This document shows, in pieces, positions 26,385-58,270 of a stretch of DNA of 64,000 nt (position 1 is its first letter; each line of letters begins with the position of its first letter). A model generated the notes under the pieces. The model had not been told where the DNA came from, ran no database searches, and was given only the letters and a program-made list of their open reading frames with translations. The stretch lies in NCBI GenBank assembly GCA_963716175.1, contig OY970296.1, positions 96,001-160,000 on the forward strand, in the 5' to 3' direction. The position numbers and the translations under genes were made by a program. Source of the stretch: an uncultured Armatimonadetes bacterium (GTDB lineage: Bacteria; Armatimonadota; Hebobacteria; Hebobacterales; Hebobacteraceae).

Positions 26385-26453
26385 GCATCCTCGCGCCGGC
26401 CGGCGGCACCACCACGGCCGGCGCATGACGACGGCGTGCGGGCAAAGGCAGGA

Positions 26454-28460
26454 ATGGCGCGGCGGGATTCCGGGCTTGAAGATAGCGGTGCTGCAGTCGC
26501 GCCGGCTTCCGCGCCGGGCGTGGCGCTTGGCCTGCCGCGACTGCCGGTCTGGCGGGGGTTCGCCGCCGGTCTGCTCTTGCTGGCGCCCAACTCGCTCTGG
26601 GTCTACTACATGGAGGGGATGACGGGGCACGGTCCGTACGTCTCCACCATCTCGCTGTTCCTCAATGTCGTGTTCATCATCGCCGTCTGCGGTGCGCTGA
26701 ACTCGCTCGCGCGAAGACTGCGGCCCGGGCTGGCGCTGAACCGCGCCGAACTCATCATCGCCTACGTGATACTGACCATCAACACCTCTATCGTCGGGCA
26801 TGACCTGATGCAGGTGCTGTTCCCGGTGATGACGGCGGGCTACTGGCTGGCGAACCCTCAGAACCGATGGGGCGATATGCTGACCGCGACGACGCCGAGC
26901 TGGCTCGGCGTCTCGGACAGGGAGGTCCTGTACGGCTACTACAGCGGCTCATCCACCATGTACCAGGCGGCGGTGATCAGGGCCTGGCTTGGACCGGCCC
27001 TGTGGTGGAGCGGCTTCGTGCTGGTGCTGGTCTCCGCCATGGTGTGCATGGCAGTGCTGGTGAGGCCTCTCTGGGCCGAGCGGGAGCGCCTGACCTTCCC
27101 GATCATCCAACTGCCCCTCGAGCTCACAAACCCGGAGAGCAGCCTGCTGAGAAGTCGCTTGCTCTGGATCGGGGTTGCGGTGGCCGGGGGCATCGATACG
27201 GTGAATGCTCTCAACACGGTCTATCCCTCTATCCCGGCGATTCCGGTCAGCTTCGATCTGATGACCTACATAAAGGATCCTCCGTGGAGCGGTATCGGCT
27301 GGCTGCCGGTCACCTTCCACCCCTTCCTGATCGGTCTGTCTTTCCTGATGCCGCTCGACCTGAGCTTCTCCTGCGTGTTCTTCTTCTTCTGGTGGAAACT
27401 GCTCTACGTGATCGCGACCGCGACGGGGATAAGCACCGGCTACGCCGGGGACATGTCTGAGGCGATCTTCCCCTGGAAGAACGAGCAGATGTTCGGCGGC
27501 TTCATCGCCATCACACTCAGCTCGCTTCTGATCGGGAGACACTACTTCGGGCACGTCTGGCGCCGCATTGTGAGCGGGATGGGTGAGGTGGACGACGCCC
27601 GGGAAGGGTTGCGGTTCCGCACCGCGGCGGTGGGCCTGGTGGTCTGTATCCTCCTGTTGGTGGCCTTCAGCGTCCACGGGGGGATGTCCCCGTGGCTGGC
27701 CGTCACCTTTTTTGCGCTATACTACGCCCTCGCCACCGCGGTGGCGAGGGTGCGCGCCGAGCTCGGGGCTCCGGTGCATGATTTCCACTTCACCGGGCCG
27801 GACTATGCACTTGCACACATGCTCGGCACCGGCAACCTGCGGGCGCGTGACCTGGGGATGCTTGGGCAGTACTTCTGGTTCAACCGGGCCTACCGGGGGC
27901 ACCCCATCGCGGGTTCGCTGGAGGGGCTGCAGATGGCGGCGCGCGCCGGGATGTCGCCGCGCCCCATTGTGGCCGCCGTGCTGGTGGCGGTCCTGCTATC
28001 GCTGGCAGCCGGCTTTTGGATCCGGCTTCACCTCTCCTACCAGGTCGGCACGAACATGCTGTTCATCTCGACCGGCGACTGGTTCGGGGTGGAGACCTAC
28101 AACCGGCTTCAGTCCTGGACGGAGAGCCCCAAGCCGATGAACCTGGCGGCGGCCGGCGCGATGGGCGCCGGACTCGTGACCACCCTCCTGCTGGCGGCGG
28201 CACGCACTACCTTCGTAGGCTGGCCGCTGCACCCGGTAGCGTATGCGCTTTCGGCGAGTTGGGAGATCCACCTGGTGTGGATGCCGATGCTCATCGCGTG
28301 GCTGGCCAAACTGGCCATCACCCGCTACGGCGGACTACGTCTCTACCACCAGGCGCTGCCTTTCTTCTTCGGGCTCATCTTGGGCGAATCTCTCGTGGGC
28401 TGTCTGTGGGTGCTGATCGGGCTGGTTCTCAAGCTCCCGAGCTACAGCTTCTTCACGTAG
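26454..28460 (+). CDS. DUF6785/DUF6784-type polytopic membrane protein (putative transporter)
   Basis: Many transmembrane helices; W.ERERLTFPIIQLP, WPLHPVAY, RYGGLRLY..ALPFFFGLILGE. Confidence 0.75.
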   Translation: MARRDSGLEDSGAAVAPASAPGVALGLPRLPVWRGFAAGLLLLAPNSLWVYYMEGMTGHGPYVSTISLFLNVVFIIAVCGALNSLARRLRPGLALNRAELIIAYVILTINTSIVGHDLMQVLFPVMTAGYWLANPQNRWGDMLTATTPSWLGVSDREVLYGYYSGSSTMYQAAVIRAWLGPALWWSGFVLVLVSAMVCMAVLVRPLWAERERLTFPIIQLPLELTNPESSLLRSRLLWIGVAVAGGIDTVNALNTVYPSIPAIPVSFDLMTYIKDPPWSGIGWLPVTFHPFLIGLSFLMPLDLSFSCVFFFFWWKLLYVIATATGISTGYAGDMSEAIFPWKNEQMFGGFIAITLSSLLIGRHYFGHVWRRIVSGMGEVDDAREGLRFRTAAVGLVVCILLLVAFSVHGGMSPWLAVTFFALYYALATAVARVRAELGAPVHDFHFTGPDYALAHMLGTGNLRARDLGMLGQYFWFNRAYRGHPIAGSLEGLQMAARAGMSPRPIVAAVLVAVLLSLAAGFWIRLHLSYQVGTNMLFISTGDWFGVETYNRLQSWTESPKPMNLAAAGAMGAGLVTTLLLAAARTTFVGWPLHPVAYALSASWEIHLVWMPMLIAWLAKLAITRYGGLRLYHQALPFFFGLILGESLVGCLWVLIGLVLKLPSYSFFT

Positions 28461-28506
28461 TCCCCCGAACCGACGATAGAATGCGCGATGCCAGCGCCGA
28501 TAGGGA

Positions 28507-28571
28507 CATGTCTCATCAGAGACCACGAGATGGTCGTCGGGAAACTGCACGGGGAGAGTCTTGACACGCCA
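28507..28571 (-). repeat. Left part of an ~80-bp repeat interrupted by the IS110 element
   Basis: Reverse complement aligns with about 61085-61146 (GGCGTGTCA..TGCAGT..CCCGA..GGTCTCTG.TGAGACATG). Confidence 0.75.
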
Positions 28572-28589
28572 AATGGCTATGCTAAGTGA

Positions 28590-28826
28590 GCGGGTTCCGT
28601 GCAGGGCGGAGGGGTTGTCGCCGGACCTGCCTTCGACTAGCCTGAGAAGGCAGGGGGCCGAGGTAGGGCTGCCTATAAGATGCGCTCCGGTACACCGGAG
28701 TCGCTCCGCCCGAATTGCCACCTCGGCCCGCCCTCCCGTTTGCCTGATTGGCCATTTGCGCTCCGGTTCTGGAGTCGCTGAGAGAATCGTGGACCAGCGG
28801 GAAGACCTGCCCATCTTGGCACGGAG
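28590..28826 (+). ncRNA. Putative IS110 bridge RNA (5' hairpin, target-binding loop, donor-binding loop)
   Basis: Hairpin 28626-28654; two internal loops sharing TGCGCTCCGG...CYGGAGTCGCT; flanking variable segments match the target and donor junctions. Confidence 0.75.
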
Positions 28827-28835
28827 GAGGCGGCG

Positions 28836-30050
28836 ATGGAAGCGGATGTGATCTGGGTGGGAGTCGACGTAGGGCGCTACACCCATGCGCTCTGTGGGAT
28901 TGACGCATCAGGGGCAATCGTGTGGGAGCGGCAACGGGTTCCCAACCCCACTTGGGCAATGCGCCGCGCGTTCGAGAAGCTGAGCCGCTTCGCCAAGGGC
29001 CGACCACTGCGCTTTGCGACCGAAGAGCCCGCTGGCAATGCCTCTGCACTGCTTCGTCTGCTGGCGGCAGCTGGCGAAGCCGTCTACCTCGCTCAGCCAC
29101 TCCGAGTGTATCGGTTTCACCTTGCCCTGGGGCAGCCCCACAAGACAGACCCCTATGATGCTCAGGTGATCGCCGAGTTCGCCCGCCAGAATGCCTCCAA
29201 GCTGCCCCCCGTTCGGCTTGGTACACCAGCTACGCAGGCCCTGCGCGTGCTCTCCCGGCGGGCCGAGGCCCTGAGCAAGGATCTGCGGCGCTGCGTCAAC
29301 CGGCTTCGTGGTGTGCTTGCTGAGTATGCACCCGAGTGGCTTGCCTGTAAGGTGTTCAGGGACTGGTCCAGTGGGGCGGCCTTGGGGACGCTGGAGCGTT
29401 ACGGGCGGATCTCAAAGCTGCGTCGAGCCCGCGTCAGCTCACTTGCCAAGGCCCTCTCCCAGTGGACGCAAGGACGCTACGGCGAAGCCCAGGCTCGCGC
29501 GCTCATCGCAGCCTTCGCGGAAGTCTCTCTCCCTGCGCAGTTGGAAGCAGCCCACTCTCAGGTGATCTGCTCTCTCGTCTCCCAGATTCGCGGTCTGATC
29601 GCGGAGAGAGGGCAATTGCGCGCGCGCGTCGCGGCGGAGGGCGAATCCCTGCCCGCGGTGGCAGTGCTCCAGTCCGAATTCGGCTACGGTCCGGAAACAG
29701 CCGCCGTCATCGTTTCCGAGGTCGGTGACATGGCCGACTTCCCCAGAGAAGCAGCTTTCGCTACCTACTGTGGGGTGACTCCGCTCAAACGCAGGTCTGG
29801 GGTCTCCCGCGGCTCTGCACGCCTCTCGCGCTTCACGAGCAAACGGCTGCTGCGAGCCGTTACGCAGGCGGCGCTGACAGCTGCGACCCACCACGCAGAG
29901 TCCCGACTCTACTACCAGAAGAAGCTGGCCGGCCGATCCGATCCGCGCACCAAGACGCTCGCCCTCATCGCGCTCGCGCGGCATCGCGCCCGGCGGCTCT
30001 ACAAGGTACTGCGACGTGCGTCGTTACCGTCGGCGGAGGTCGCCGCGTAA
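28836..30050 (+). CDS. IS110 family DEDD recombinase/transposase
   Basis: WVGVDVGR, ATEE, HKTDPYDA (RuvC-like DEDD); FATYCGVTP...SG catalytic Ser region; GGAGGAGG RBS. Confidence 0.92.
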   Translation: MEADVIWVGVDVGRYTHALCGIDASGAIVWERQRVPNPTWAMRRAFEKLSRFAKGRPLRFATEEPAGNASALLRLLAAAGEAVYLAQPLRVYRFHLALGQPHKTDPYDAQVIAEFARQNASKLPPVRLGTPATQALRVLSRRAEALSKDLRRCVNRLRGVLAEYAPEWLACKVFRDWSSGAALGTLERYGRISKLRRARVSSLAKALSQWTQGRYGEAQARALIAAFAEVSLPAQLEAAHSQVICSLVSQIRGLIAERGQLRARVAAEGESLPAVAVLQSEFGYGPETAAVIVSEVGDMADFPREAAFATYCGVTPLKRRSGVSRGSARLSRFTSKRLLRAVTQAALTAATHHAESRLYYQKKLAGRSDPRTKTLALIALARHRARRLYKVLRRASLPSAEVAA

Positions 30051-30094
30051 CGTGAGCAAGACCGCGTTGAGACAACTCTTGACTAAACAGAGAG

Positions 30095-30113
30095 TCTTAT
30101 AGGGACACCCACA
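30095..30113 (-). repeat. Right part of the IS110-interrupted repeat
   Basis: Reverse complement TGTGGGTGTCCCTATAAGA matches TGTGGGTGTTCCCATAAGG at 61066-61084. Confidence 0.7.
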
Positions 30114-30126
30114 ACCGGTCCTGGGC

Positions 30127-30167
30127 TTGACATTCGCCGGCGGCTGGTGTATAAGCAGCTGATATTC
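30127..30167 (+). promoter_or_regulatory. padR promoter with overlapping putative PadR operator
   Basis: TTGACA-N17-TATAAG; imperfect palindrome GTATAAGCAGCTGATATTC at 30149-30167. Confidence 0.7.
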
Positions 30168-30198
30168 CGTGGCCGCATCCGAGAAGCGGGGTCTCCCC

Positions 30199-30540
30199 AT
30201 GCCAGCCATCAGCGGTGACATTCTCAAGGGCAACACTCTCACTCTTATCCTCAGTCTGCTCGAAGAGCAGCCGATGTACGGGTTCCAGATCTCGCGAGAG
30301 GTCGAGCGGCGGAGCGAGGGGACGTTGCGCTTTAGAGAGGGGCTGCTCTATCCGGCACTGCACCAACTGGAGAAGGAAGAACTGGTCGAGGCCGAATGGA
30401 AGGTCTCGAGCCAGGGGCCGCGGCGCAAGTACTACCGGCTGACCGGGAAAGGCAGGCGGCAGGCGGAGAGGCTGCGCAGGAGATGGGCGGCATTCGCGGG
30501 CGCGGTGAACCAGGTGCTCGGGAGCAAGGCCCGTGGTTAG
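30199..30540 (+). CDS. PadR family transcriptional regulator
   Basis: LKGNTLTLILSLL...PMYGFQI...EGLLYPALHQLE...RRKYYRLT. Confidence 0.92.
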   Translation: MPAISGDILKGNTLTLILSLLEEQPMYGFQISREVERRSEGTLRFREGLLYPALHQLEKEELVEAEWKVSSQGPRRKYYRLTGKGRRQAERLRRRWAAFAGAVNQVLGSKARG

Positions 30541-31186
30541 CATCGAGGCGTACCTGGACAGAGTCTGCGGCAAGCTCCGGGTGAACCCGGCAGAGGCGGA
30601 GGACATCCGCGAGGAGCTGCGGTCTCACCTCGAAGAGACCATCCGCGGGCGGCTCGAGCGCGGACTCAGTGAAGCGGCCGCGATCGACTTCGCCATTGCC
30701 TCGGTCGGCGATCCGGTGAAGCTGCATGAGTGTCTCGACCGGGTGCATGGCGGCGACCCGTGGTGGGTGCGGCGGCTGAAGGGCTTTGCCTTCGGCATGC
30801 TCATGGGCGGGTTCCTCGCGCTGCTGATCCCCCTGGGCGGCCATTTCGAGTTCGCCGCCCGGCTGATCTCGCTCCCTGCAGCCGTCGATCCCTCTCGGCT
30901 CCCTATGCTGCTCAACGGTCTCCTCGCCGGCGGCGTCATTGGCTTGCTCGCCGCGGGTGGTGGCGGGGTACTGGTCGGGTGGAGCGCTGGCGCGGTGCTG
31001 TGGCTGGCCGAGTATGTAACCTATTGGATGGCGCAAGCCGCCGGTGGCGATGTGAGCTCGGCCGGCAGCATGCTCGAGCGGGTGCTGCTCGCGCCGCTCT
31101 TGGGTGGTCTCTTCGGTGCCGCGGTTGGCGCCGCGTCATCGGCCGTTCTCGCCGCGGCCTCTCGCTTCCGGCCGCGGGTTCAGTAG
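30533..31186 (+). CDS. HAAS / permease-prefix domain membrane protein
   Basis: IEAYLDRV...DIREELRSHLEE...AIASVGDP followed by transmembrane helices; overlaps padR. Confidence 0.8.
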   Translation: MVSIEAYLDRVCGKLRVNPAEAEDIREELRSHLEETIRGRLERGLSEAAAIDFAIASVGDPVKLHECLDRVHGGDPWWVRRLKGFAFGMLMGGFLALLIPLGGHFEFAARLISLPAAVDPSRLPMLLNGLLAGGVIGLLAAGGGGVLVGWSAGAVLWLAEYVTYWMAQAAGGDVSSAGSMLERVLLAPLLGGLFGAAVGAASSAVLAAASRFRPRVQ

Positions 31187-57054: not shown

Positions 57055-58270
57055 ACAATTTTCACTCAGTTTCGCCTTTCCCCCGGACTCATTCGGGCCA
57101 CTCGCCGAATGGGCTTTGAGACGCCGACTCCCATCCAGCAGGAAGTAATTCCTCTTGCGCTTGCCGGCGGCGATGTCATCGCCACGGCGGAGACGGGAAG
57201 CGGCAAGACCGCTGCCTTCTTGCTCCCACTGATCCAGCGTCTCTACGGCGGCCGGAACGGATGCACGCGAGCGCTGATCCTCTCTCCCACGCGTGAGCTC
57301 GCGGCCCAAACCGCGGAGCAGTGCGTCCTACTGACGCACGACACACCTCTGCGCACAATAGACGTGTACGGCGGCGTCGGCATGGCCCGCCAACATCGAG
57401 GCCCTGAGAGTCGGCTATGAGATCGTGGTGGCAACGCCTGGTCGATTGCTCGACCACTGCCGCCGACGTTCGGCTCGGCTCGACGCGGTCGAAGTGCTGG
57501 TGGTGGACGAGGCCGACCGCATGATGGACATGGGGTTCATCCCCGACCTGCGGCGCATCCTTGCGCTGCTGCCTAGAGAACGCCAGTCCATGCTCTTCTC
57601 CGCCACCATGCCGATCGCGCTGATGGAAGTGGCGTATGAGGAGATCCTGCGGAACCCGACCCACGTCGAGGTCGGCTCGCCCTCTGCTCCGCCCCCGACG
57701 GTATCGCAGTCTGTGTACATGGTGCCGTCGGCGCGCAAGACCGATCTGCTGCTGGAGTTGCTCAACCACGATGCCATGGTGAGCGTGGTGGTCTTCGTTC
57801 GCACCCGGCACCGCGCCAATCTCCTCGCCACTCGTCTTCAGCGCGAGAGGCTGAAGACGGCCTGCATCCACGGTGATCGCAGCCAACACGAGCGGGAACA
57901 GGCCCTCGACAGCTTCCGGCAGCGCTCCGTGCGAGTGCTTGTCGCAACCGACGTTGCTGCTCGCGGCCTCCATGTGGAGGGAGTCACGCATGTGGTCAAC
58001 TACGACGTCCCTGCCCTGCCAGTGGAGTATCTCAACCGGATCGGACGAACGGCGCGAGCCGGAGCCTCCGGTGATGCCCTCACCCTGGCAAGCCGCGAGG
58101 ACGCCGCTGCTCTGGCGGGCATTGAACGTACTCTCGGCGGGCAGTTGCCCCGGGTGGCCGTGGCGGGGTTGACCGAGCCCGAGCCTGCTCGCATCTCGCC
58201 TGTACCTGGGAGGCCCCGCCCGCACCCACGCGGTGCGCGGCGGTCGCTGGGCCGAGGTCGGCGAAGGTAG
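57055..58270 (+). pseudogene. DEAD-box RNA helicase (RhlE-like), frameshifted near 57394; start unresolved
   Basis: MGFETPTPIQ, AETGSGKT, PTRELA, then ATPGRL, DEAD, SAT, HGDRSQ, TDVAARG in the next frame; motif VI reads NRIGRT. Confidence 0.85.

Follow-up and report, generated by a model that had tools for sequence, protein, structure and literature searches.

The window analysed here, a stretch of 64,000 nucleotides (nt) from an uncultured Armatimonadetes bacterium (contig OY970296.1, positions 96,001 to 160,000, of assembly GCA_963716175.1), contains an intact insertion sequence of the IS110 family whose upstream non-coding RNA carries two guide loops of the bridge-RNA kind. The element combines the RNA position and the short right end of IS110-type elements with the guide order of IS1111-type elements. 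Comparison with homologous elements revealed that the first loop changes together with the insertion site and that the second loop matches the element's own ends, while uninterrupted copies of the target pointed to an insertion without duplication. Taken together, these data make it probable (about 85%) that the window holds an intact IS110 element with a DEDD/serine recombinase, an upstream bridge RNA of ~190-230 nt and a life cycle that would run through a junction promoter. The coordinates of all features are given in Table 1.

The recombinase and the insertion site

The sole long open reading frame (ORF) fitting the element, at 28836-30050, encodes a recombinase of 404 amino acids (aa). 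It matches PF01548 (DEDD_Tnp_IS110; 1e-28) and PF02371 (Transposase_20; 3e-19) and scores 205 bits against NCBIfam NF033542 ('IS110 family RNA-guided transposase'; cut-off 140), and the N-terminal DEDD RuvC-like domain together with the C-terminal Tnp domain places it in the IS110 family, in line with the original prediction made for this DNA. The closest solved structures are the transposases of ISCro4 (E 1.4e-10) and IS621 (5.9e-10), with the similarity lying mainly in the C-terminal domain. Residues D11, E63/E64, D105, D108, S321 and G322 are invariant across 27 homologs, and S321-G322 aligned with an S-G of ISCro4; presumably, the catalytic-type residues are the counterparts of D11, E60, D102, D105 and S241 in IS621.

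A protein search at E ≤1e-30 returned 33 clusters, 32 of them at 54-100% identity and the next relative at 31%, nearly all originating from short metagenome contigs; relatives were present in three of 61 related genomes, own genome counted. The alignment of 27 proteins used for pattern scans yielded 26 metagenome loci and one locus in a metagenome-assembled genome (MAG). When genome contigs were scanned with a single protein, no relative was found, and the alignment-based scan gave one locus; tblastn of the plasmid collection at 1e-20 gave no match. Following removal of duplicate loci (L028 and L005, equal to L021; L036, equal to L035; L037, equal to L009) and of loci wanting the relevant end (L012, L024, L026-L029, L031, L033-L036), the comparison set beyond the window comprised 15 left ends and ten elements with a right junction. 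The homologs form a window clade (L011 at 94% and L023 at 76% identity, with L025 and L020 more distant) and a 65% clade (L013-L019, L021, L022, L030 and L032).

The boundaries were determined from uninterrupted copies of the target. Two paralogs in the same genome, P1 and P2, align without a gap across the site and read ...GCC G TC(T/C)TATAGG. In addition, six metagenome contigs from three runs (two from X2, three from X3 and one from X4) match the window through 28570 and continue directly with GTCTTATAGG, or with GTCTTACAGG in one of them, so that all these empty targets read GCC G in front of a TCTTATAGG-like sequence. The A preceding AATGGC, at position 28571, is found in three independent insertions (window, L011 and L023). 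Since the empty copies read GCC G, A28571 was most likely brought by the element and G30094 by the target; hence, judged from these alignments, the element most likely spans 28571-30093 and sits between the C and the G of the target, no base being duplicated. A sequence check found every string quoted in the original prediction in its place, and the length it gave was right, but its limits of 28572-30094 are probably 1 nt off: they need an A in the target, which none of the eight empty copies has, and 28571-30093 is the simplest reading.

Members of the 65% clade target the Y-x-Y-D codons of YD-repeat genes. On their contigs, YD repeats that are uninterrupted have the sequence GTCG(T/A)AGGTGTAGG, coding for Y-x-Y-D on the opposite strand; they fix the total length of the target and therefore imply an insertion without duplication in this clade as well. 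Neither the empty sites nor the YD repeats contain a core dinucleotide that is common to target and donor and flanks the insert, as had been foreseen. The two guide strands of each loop overlap by one purine at most; in the window clade the donor has A at this position and the target has G, so that a shared core is not required. The right junctions of L015, L016, L017, L021 and L022 are located in YD/RHS-repeat genes, with GTCG adjoining TAGGTGTAGG on the element strand; a highly repeated coding motif is the target of these 65%-identical relatives.

Direct repeats had raised the possibility of a duplicated two-base core of purine-pyrimidine (RY) type at both ends, as in IS621, with CGAATCGGC.. 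on the left and ..CAGAGA on the right. In six of seven 65%-clade elements, the purine-pyrimidine pair preceding CGAAT at the left is indeed repeated behind CAGAGA at the right, and the reading frames of the interrupted genes fit such a core in four of four long-ORF cases. The frame test fits the model without duplication, too; the models differ by 3 nt, so that a test modulo three cannot separate them. A duplicated core would, however, delete the D codon of Y-x-Y-D, at odds with the uninterrupted repeats, and would stretch the promoter spacer to 20 nt instead of 17 nt, and the empty sites of the window clade leave no room for a duplicated base. The RY core was rejected for the 65% clade on the loss of the D codon and on promoter spacing, and for the element at large we regard it as improbable. 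Likewise, the 9-bp repeat GAGAGTCTT at 28555-28563 and 30090-30098 was rejected as a target duplication, because the empty copies carry GAGTCTTGAC upstream; the right end contains a similar TCTTGAC.

The upstream RNA and its guide loops

For structure analysis, 16 left ends (window plus 15 homologs, mostly metagenomic; mean column identity 67%) were aligned. RNAalifold predicted two internal-loop modules with 47 pairs, 14 of which show compensatory changes. In the stems of the two loops (41 pairs), 96.2% of the cells are standard-paired, compared with 35.7-49.6% in controls where the 3' partners were slid by 1-3 columns; 12 of the 41 pairs have changed on both sides (45 cells), mostly in the two inner stems (5/9 and 4/8 pairs). 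Both loops share the scaffold GCGCTCCGG..CCGGAGTCGC with the closing C(C/T)GGAGTCGC (28682-28704 and 28758-28778). These data support a structured RNA, encoded by the long non-coding end, in which two internal loops share a scaffold, as originally proposed and as is characteristic of bridge RNAs. Conserved G-U pairs (e.g. U178:G236 in 16/16) are compatible with the plus strand alone.

The hairpin predicted at 28626-28654 was recovered in part: its arms are present and 78% paired, but compensatory support is lacking, and its 3' arm GGCAGG could pair instead with 28806-28811 in a helix that closes the whole two-loop domain and is paired to 89.5%. Covariation decides for neither of the two helices.

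To score guide-flank pairing, a Watson-Crick pair was counted as 1 and a wobble pair as 0.5, with two registers allowed for real as well as control pairs. In loop 1, the 5' strand varies among the elements and is complementary to the element's own right flank in all 11 elements, over five target classes: TCTTATAGG (window, L011 and L023), TAGGTGTAGG-like (L015, L016, L017, L021 and L022) and three classes with a single element each, CGAAAAGTGG (L013), CCGCAGGCGG (L019) and CCGGTAGTAGG (L020). Own-flank scores were 7.0-10.5 of 12 with a mean of 9.1, the weakest being those of L017 (7.0) and L022 (7.5); the window strand pairs with 30094-30105 in ten Watson-Crick pairs and one wobble of 12. Guide-flank pairs taken across classes (n = 84) reached a mean of 5.3 and a maximum of 7.5, where none attained the own-flank median and 8/84 attained the lowest own score. 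The segment CCTATAAGAT (28672-28681), named originally as the guide for the right half of the target, is borne out by this result.

The 3' strand of loop 1 equals the top strand of the left flank and would pair with the bottom strand. Among 15 elements, agreement with the left flank was found in 35/75 cases at five variable positions (p 0.0008; 20,000 permutations), with 8/8 matches in L013, 7/8 in L014 and 6/8 in L015, L016 and L018. By the evidence of 11 right and 15 left flanks, a single loop is matched to the left and the right half of the target and varies along with them. The original prediction had suggested examining whether guide columns covary with insertion sites in homologous left ends, which they do; the finding that would have spoken against it, loops left unchanged despite new targets, is the opposite of what was seen in loop 1. 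The last bases of loop 1, AAU(C/U), are invariant and equal to the first bases of the left end; as invariant bases cannot covary, their likeness to the handshake guides of IS621 is a resemblance only.

These data also bear on the view that the left end is a mere leader or promoter region, in which the flank matches would be due to chance or to flank sequence carried along. The fold energy of the single sequence is ordinary (z = -1.51; 17/200 shuffles fold as well) and lends no support to the RNA structure, which is supported by covariation, and the right flanks of the window clade are alike for at least 13 nt past the guide match. This extended likeness is explained by the target's position in a repeat of which element-free copies exist. 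Given that the guides change along with the targets over five classes and that the stems contain compensatory changes, the probability of this view is close to nil.

The second loop was compared with the ends of the element. Its 5' strand in the window forms 7/7 Watson-Crick pairs with the left end AAATGGC, in agreement with the complementarity that had been noted for GCCATT (28751-28756), and at least five Watson-Crick pairs of seven were found in 15 of the 16 elements. Four compensated states occur, GCCA/TGGC, GCCG/CGGC, GCUA/TAGC and GCUG/CAGC, and an extra change in L013 and L019 makes the match of the 5' strand perfect. The 3' strand agrees with CAGAGA plus the junction base at 6/7 positions in ten of 11 elements and, in L013, at 7/7. 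In 11/11 elements, this strand ends in the base that directly follows CAGAGA once the ends are joined, G for the 65% clade and A for the window clade and L020; this agreement amounts to one or two evolutionary events and is weak evidence. The identity of GAGAGAAT (28780-28787) with the circle junction (8/8) holds for the junction as it was drawn originally; for the revised junction in the family register it is 6/7. The second loop, hence, pairs with the joined ends, in few independent states and with L032 as an exception.

Table 1. Features of the element, its RNA and its target. Positions refer to the window unless C1 (own genome) or L049 is named.
Feature	Position	Strand	Basis or remark
IS110-family insertion sequence, 1523 bp	28571-30093	+	empty-site copies GCC followed by GTCTTATAGG; 1-nt ambiguity
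Left target half ACACGCC	28564-28570	+	aligned with paralogous empty sites
Right target half GTCTTATAGG	30094-30103	+	empty-site copies
Left non-coding end, 265 nt, bridge RNA source	28571-28835	+	alignment with 15 homologous left ends
-10 box TATGCT of predicted junction promoter	28578-28583	+	GCTATG(G/C)TAAGTG near-invariant in 16 left ends
5' hairpin, arms 28626-28634/28646-28654	28626-28654	+	78% paired in homologs, no compensatory support
Target-binding loop, outer stem, 5' arm	28655-28669	+	pairs with 28717-28729; 13 pairs, 97% paired, 2 compensatory
Target-binding loop, 5' strand, 12 nt	28670-28681	+	complementary to right flank 30094-30105
Target-binding loop, inner stem-loop	28682-28704	+	9 pairs, 5 compensatory
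Target-binding loop, 3' strand UCCGCCCGAAUU	28705-28716	+	left-flank guide identical to top strand, then AAU
Target-binding loop, outer stem, 3' arm	28717-28729	+	pairs with 28655-28669
Donor-binding loop, outer stems, 5' arms	28735-28748	+	pair with 28786-28801; 11 pairs, 97-99% paired, 1 compensatory
Donor-binding loop, 5' strand UGGCCAUUU	28749-28757	+	complementary to left-end top strand AAATGGC(TA)
Donor-binding loop, inner stem-loop	28758-28778	+	8 pairs, 4 compensatory
Donor-binding loop, 3' strand	28779-28786	+	identical to right end CAGAGA plus next junction base
Recombinase gene, 404 aa	28836-30050	+	Pfam, NCBIfam matches
Right end, 43 nt	30051-30093	+	holds -35 box TTGACT 30079-30084
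Genomic repeat (~170 nt) holding the target, left part	28462-28570	+	right part 30094-about 30120
Long repeat copies	C1:2890462-2890569(-), 1713107-1713215(-), 57496-57609(+)		own genome
Location listed with target-repeat entry	L049 889-1992(-)		

Predicted junction promoter, mobility and genomic setting

A motif scan showed the right ends to conserve CTCTTGACT..CAGAGA. When the two ends are joined, the spacing between TTGACT and TATG(C/G)T becomes 16 nt for the window and 17 nt for the 65% clade, so that the promoter predicted originally (TTGACT-N16/17-TATGCT) stands as far as conserved boxes and spacing can tell; the -35 box is absent from L020 and L024. The circle junction is predicted to read ...TTGACTAAACAGAGA joined to AAATGGCTATGCT....

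These features are consistent with the following cycle. Excision would join the right end to the left end and bring TTGACT and TATGCT to a distance of 16 nt, and the resulting promoter would drive the RNA and the recombinase gene. Loop 1 would bind the target, its 5' strand pairing with the right flank and its 3' strand with the left flank, and loop 2 would bind the donor through strands matched to the element's own ends. The recombinase would then exchange strands between the target, cut between GCC and G, and the donor, cut between CAGAGA and A, with AAU acting as a handshake guide, and the element would be inserted without duplication. What is inferred in this scheme comprises transcription, circle formation, catalysis, the sequence of strand cuts and the handshake role of AAU.

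Several observations weigh against this reading. The left-flank guide of the window itself fits poorly, with 3/8 matches plus one wobble in the family register; the match of CCGCC (28706-28710) to ACGCC, noted in the original prediction, lies one base out of that register. Relative to CAGAGA, the register of the loop-1 5' strand is one base apart between the window clade and the 65% clade, and, thus, the crossover is known to ~1 nt only. The evidence from the donor loop is thin, as the ends are near-constant and offer some four sequence states: own pairing reached a mean of 6.16 of 7 compared with 5.07 for other end types, a small margin that results from ends differing at merely one or two positions, L032 is uncompensated with three Watson-Crick pairs of seven, and the base taken as the final guide position on the 3' strand of loop 2 is paired with U181 by RNAalifold. 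None of 500 column shuffles matched the observed pairing, covariation score or number of compensated pairs, yet this statistic overstates independence because the sequences are related, a weakness of which the slid controls are free. Rfam gave no match at E up to 1 in 28000-30600. Contigs of four runs contained no right-end-to-left-end joint, which has no bearing on circle formation, and no RNA run is listed among the sequencing runs that contain the sequence, which has no bearing on expression. Finally, the host genome, a single contig of 4.56 Mb with 66% G+C, contains one full copy of the element and two truncated copies only.

The low copy number also fits the window copy being a stranded, immobile relic with RNA features that were inherited and are unused here. 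Two good targets remain unoccupied in the genome, P1 with a perfect TCTTATAGG, and the left guide matches poorly; the RNA covariance model R1 matches once in the own genome (257 bits) and in just two of 151 genomes of the phylum, own genome counted. On the other hand, the ORF is intact, of full length like its homologs and retains all invariant residues, the stems of the RNA are intact, and a 94%-identical copy (L011) occupies another site in a metagenome contig, which implies that the lineage moved recently. We consider an immobile relic unlikely, though it is by far the strongest of the alternatives weighed, and retain the reading of an intact element with a bridge RNA.

The repeat that holds the target is present in further copies in the genome, three at 82-90% identity over 108-115 nt and two shorter ones. 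At C1:2890xxx, an uninterrupted copy lies immediately after the stop codon of the gene for a 367-aa protein with PF01548 and PF02371, which shares 24% identity over 188 residues with the window recombinase. This position implies that another IS110-family element has the repeat as its long non-coding end downstream of the gene; the window element inserts ~25 nt from that end. The window copy of the repeat has no transposase gene beside it and follows a DUF6785/DUF6784 gene. The repeat thus resembles an extended right non-coding end belonging to a second, IS1111-like element, whose own guide RNA it may encode; two paralogous target repeats gave no Rfam match at E up to 1.

Further observations concern the surroundings of the element and single homologs. 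The neighbouring genes encode a DUF6785/DUF6784 membrane protein (26436-28460) and a PadR-family regulator (30169-30540), and a good promoter-like TTGACA-N17-TATAAG is located at ~30125-30153, downstream of the insertion. The own genome contains 11 matches to the IS110 DEDD domain, including three identical-scoring copies (C1:816029, 2788245 and 4048462) and a similar fourth at 783262. In L015 (2737-2852), the right end occurs twice, ~98 nt apart and both times with the same 40 nt upstream, where the first copy leads into unrelated sequence and the second into the target; this may be the trace of an imprecise or one-ended event. In L009/L037 (1762-1800; G002, a Candidatus Hebobacteria MAG), first TCAGAGAG and then TCTTATAGGG come after the right end ...CAGAGAA, leaving an 8-nt right-end remnant between element and target. 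One contig of run X3 skips 715 nt in the recombinase gene (window 29260-29976); with a short side of 25 nt it is a weak indication of an internally deleted metagenome variant of the element.

Comparison with IS621, ISEc21, IS1111-type elements and ISPpu10

The known systems are compared here as the text of the cited publications describes them. In IS621, LTG (left target guide) and LDG (left donor guide) pair with the bottom strand and RTG (right target guide) and RDG (right donor guide) with the top strand, and the CT core is part of all four (PMC11208160). The numbering of the IS621 RNA, with G53 in the LTG, the RTG at 74-80, handshake bases at 81-82, the RDG extending to 165 and handshake bases at 166-167, implies that the bottom-strand guides are located 5' and those for the top strand 3'; the left end carries the RNA, with the junction promoter upstream of it (PMC11208158). 

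With IS621 and ISCro4 (IS622), the window element shares the two Pfam domains, a long left end that encodes the RNA upstream of the recombinase gene, and one target loop and one donor loop with one strand per DNA strand in each. As in IS621, bases beside the target guide match the donor in the manner of handshake guides, and the target lies in a genomic repeat. The protein is distant from both (E ~1e-10) and, with 404 aa compared with 326-341 aa, larger. Unlike in IS621, where the bottom-strand guides occupy the 5' strands, both loops have the guide for the top strand in the 5' position, the right-flank guide is long (9-10 nt) and the left-flank guide short, and no CT-type core is common to donor and target or duplicated. 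The reversal of guide order relative to IS621, a central claim of the original prediction, was thereby confirmed for both loops against the order given in the text of PMC11208160 and PMC11208158.

The reversal would be an artefact if the RNA were a canonical one of IS621 type, with the bottom-strand guide first, and if boundaries, strand or the IS621 convention had been misread. IS621 entered the comparison through its published description, and, seen from the other DNA strand, the guide lengths (long 5', short 3' plus handshake-like bases) resemble those of IS621. However, the strand of the RNA is set by the conserved G-U pairs and by the orientation of the predicted junction promoter, the empty sites fix the boundaries to 1 nt, the loop-1 5' strand is complementary to the right flank on the sense strand in 11/11 elements, and the text of PMC11187229 gives the top-strand match of ISEc21 as 3' and that of IS1111 types as opposite. 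A misread canonical RNA is, thus, very improbable, and the reversed order is taken as a property of the element.

ISEc21, an element of IS110 type, is described with the top-strand match 3' of the bottom-strand match and inserts without duplication, while the seekRNAs of IS1111 type have it 5' (PMC11187229). The window element resembles ISEc21 in its non-coding region upstream of the transposase gene, in its insertion without target duplication and in having its target within another mobile element, IS3-family genes in the case of ISEc21 and an IS110-family element end here (PMC11187229); it differs in guide order, the bottom-strand match being 5' in ISEc21 according to the same description. 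The order found here, with the top-strand complement 5' of the bottom-strand match, is that of the IS1111-type seekRNAs of ISEc11, ISPa11 and ISKpn4 (PMC11187229). The element differs from the IS1111 group in other respects: that group has its RNA in a long right end, downstream of the transposase gene, whereas here the RNA is located in a left end of 265 nt and the right end measures 43 nt, and the subterminal inverted repeats of 7-17 bp that mark this group are missing, as the two ends match locally over 6 nt at best, a score that 312/500 shuffles reach as well. ISPpu10 is likewise an IS110-group element with a left-end bridge RNA, a junction promoter and a target in a genomic repeat, but it retains the canonical layout and the CT core and pairs with the right target half (RT) on the forward and the left target half (LT) on the reverse strand (10.64898/2026.03.19.712850).

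Siddiquee et al. present the orders of IS110 and IS1111 as reversed and give no intermediate form in the text (PMC11187229). A left-end bridge RNA with the top-strand guide first is described neither in the text consulted from PMC11208160, PMC11208158 and PMC11187229 nor in that from 10.1101/2025.10.25.684509, 10.64898/2026.03.19.712850 and 10.64898/2026.10.21.760802. In a 2026 preprint, 86 covariance models are presented and 32,190 bridge RNAs predicted, many of them structurally unlike IS621, and guide order is not discussed in the text consulted; its Fig. S12, as well as Extended Data Fig. 10c and the Supplementary Data of PMC11208160, may already show the reversed layout. Among the literature matches listed, no bridge RNA was found for IS900, IS117, IS116, IS1533 or IS901.

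It was proposed originally that the element represents a distinct programmable subfamily. The reversed order and the missing core agree with this, but as the IS1111 order and the duplication-free insertion of ISEc21 have already been reported, it is a variant within a known system and introduces no new principle. Only tentatively do we propose that the clade of ~32 protein clusters is a lineage of IS110-group layout that reads donor and target in the polarity opposite to IS621 and ISEc21, needs no common core dinucleotide but a single purine differing between donor and target, and carries in its target loop a handshake-like stretch of 3-4 nt matching the left end. If true, it would be a natural bridge system free of the core-sequence constraint on programmable sites. 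This would matter because bridge recombinases are under development for programmable insertion, inversion and excision, and IS621, ISCro4 and ISPpu10 require, according to their published descriptions, a fixed core dinucleotide in target and donor; a coreless natural system of reversed order would broaden the rules of guide design. For genome annotation, the present case shows that the targets of the element are predictable from its RNA. With regard to the kinship of IS110 and IS1111 RNAs, the lineage would then constitute an evolutionary link between the IS110-type and the IS1111-type guide arrangements.

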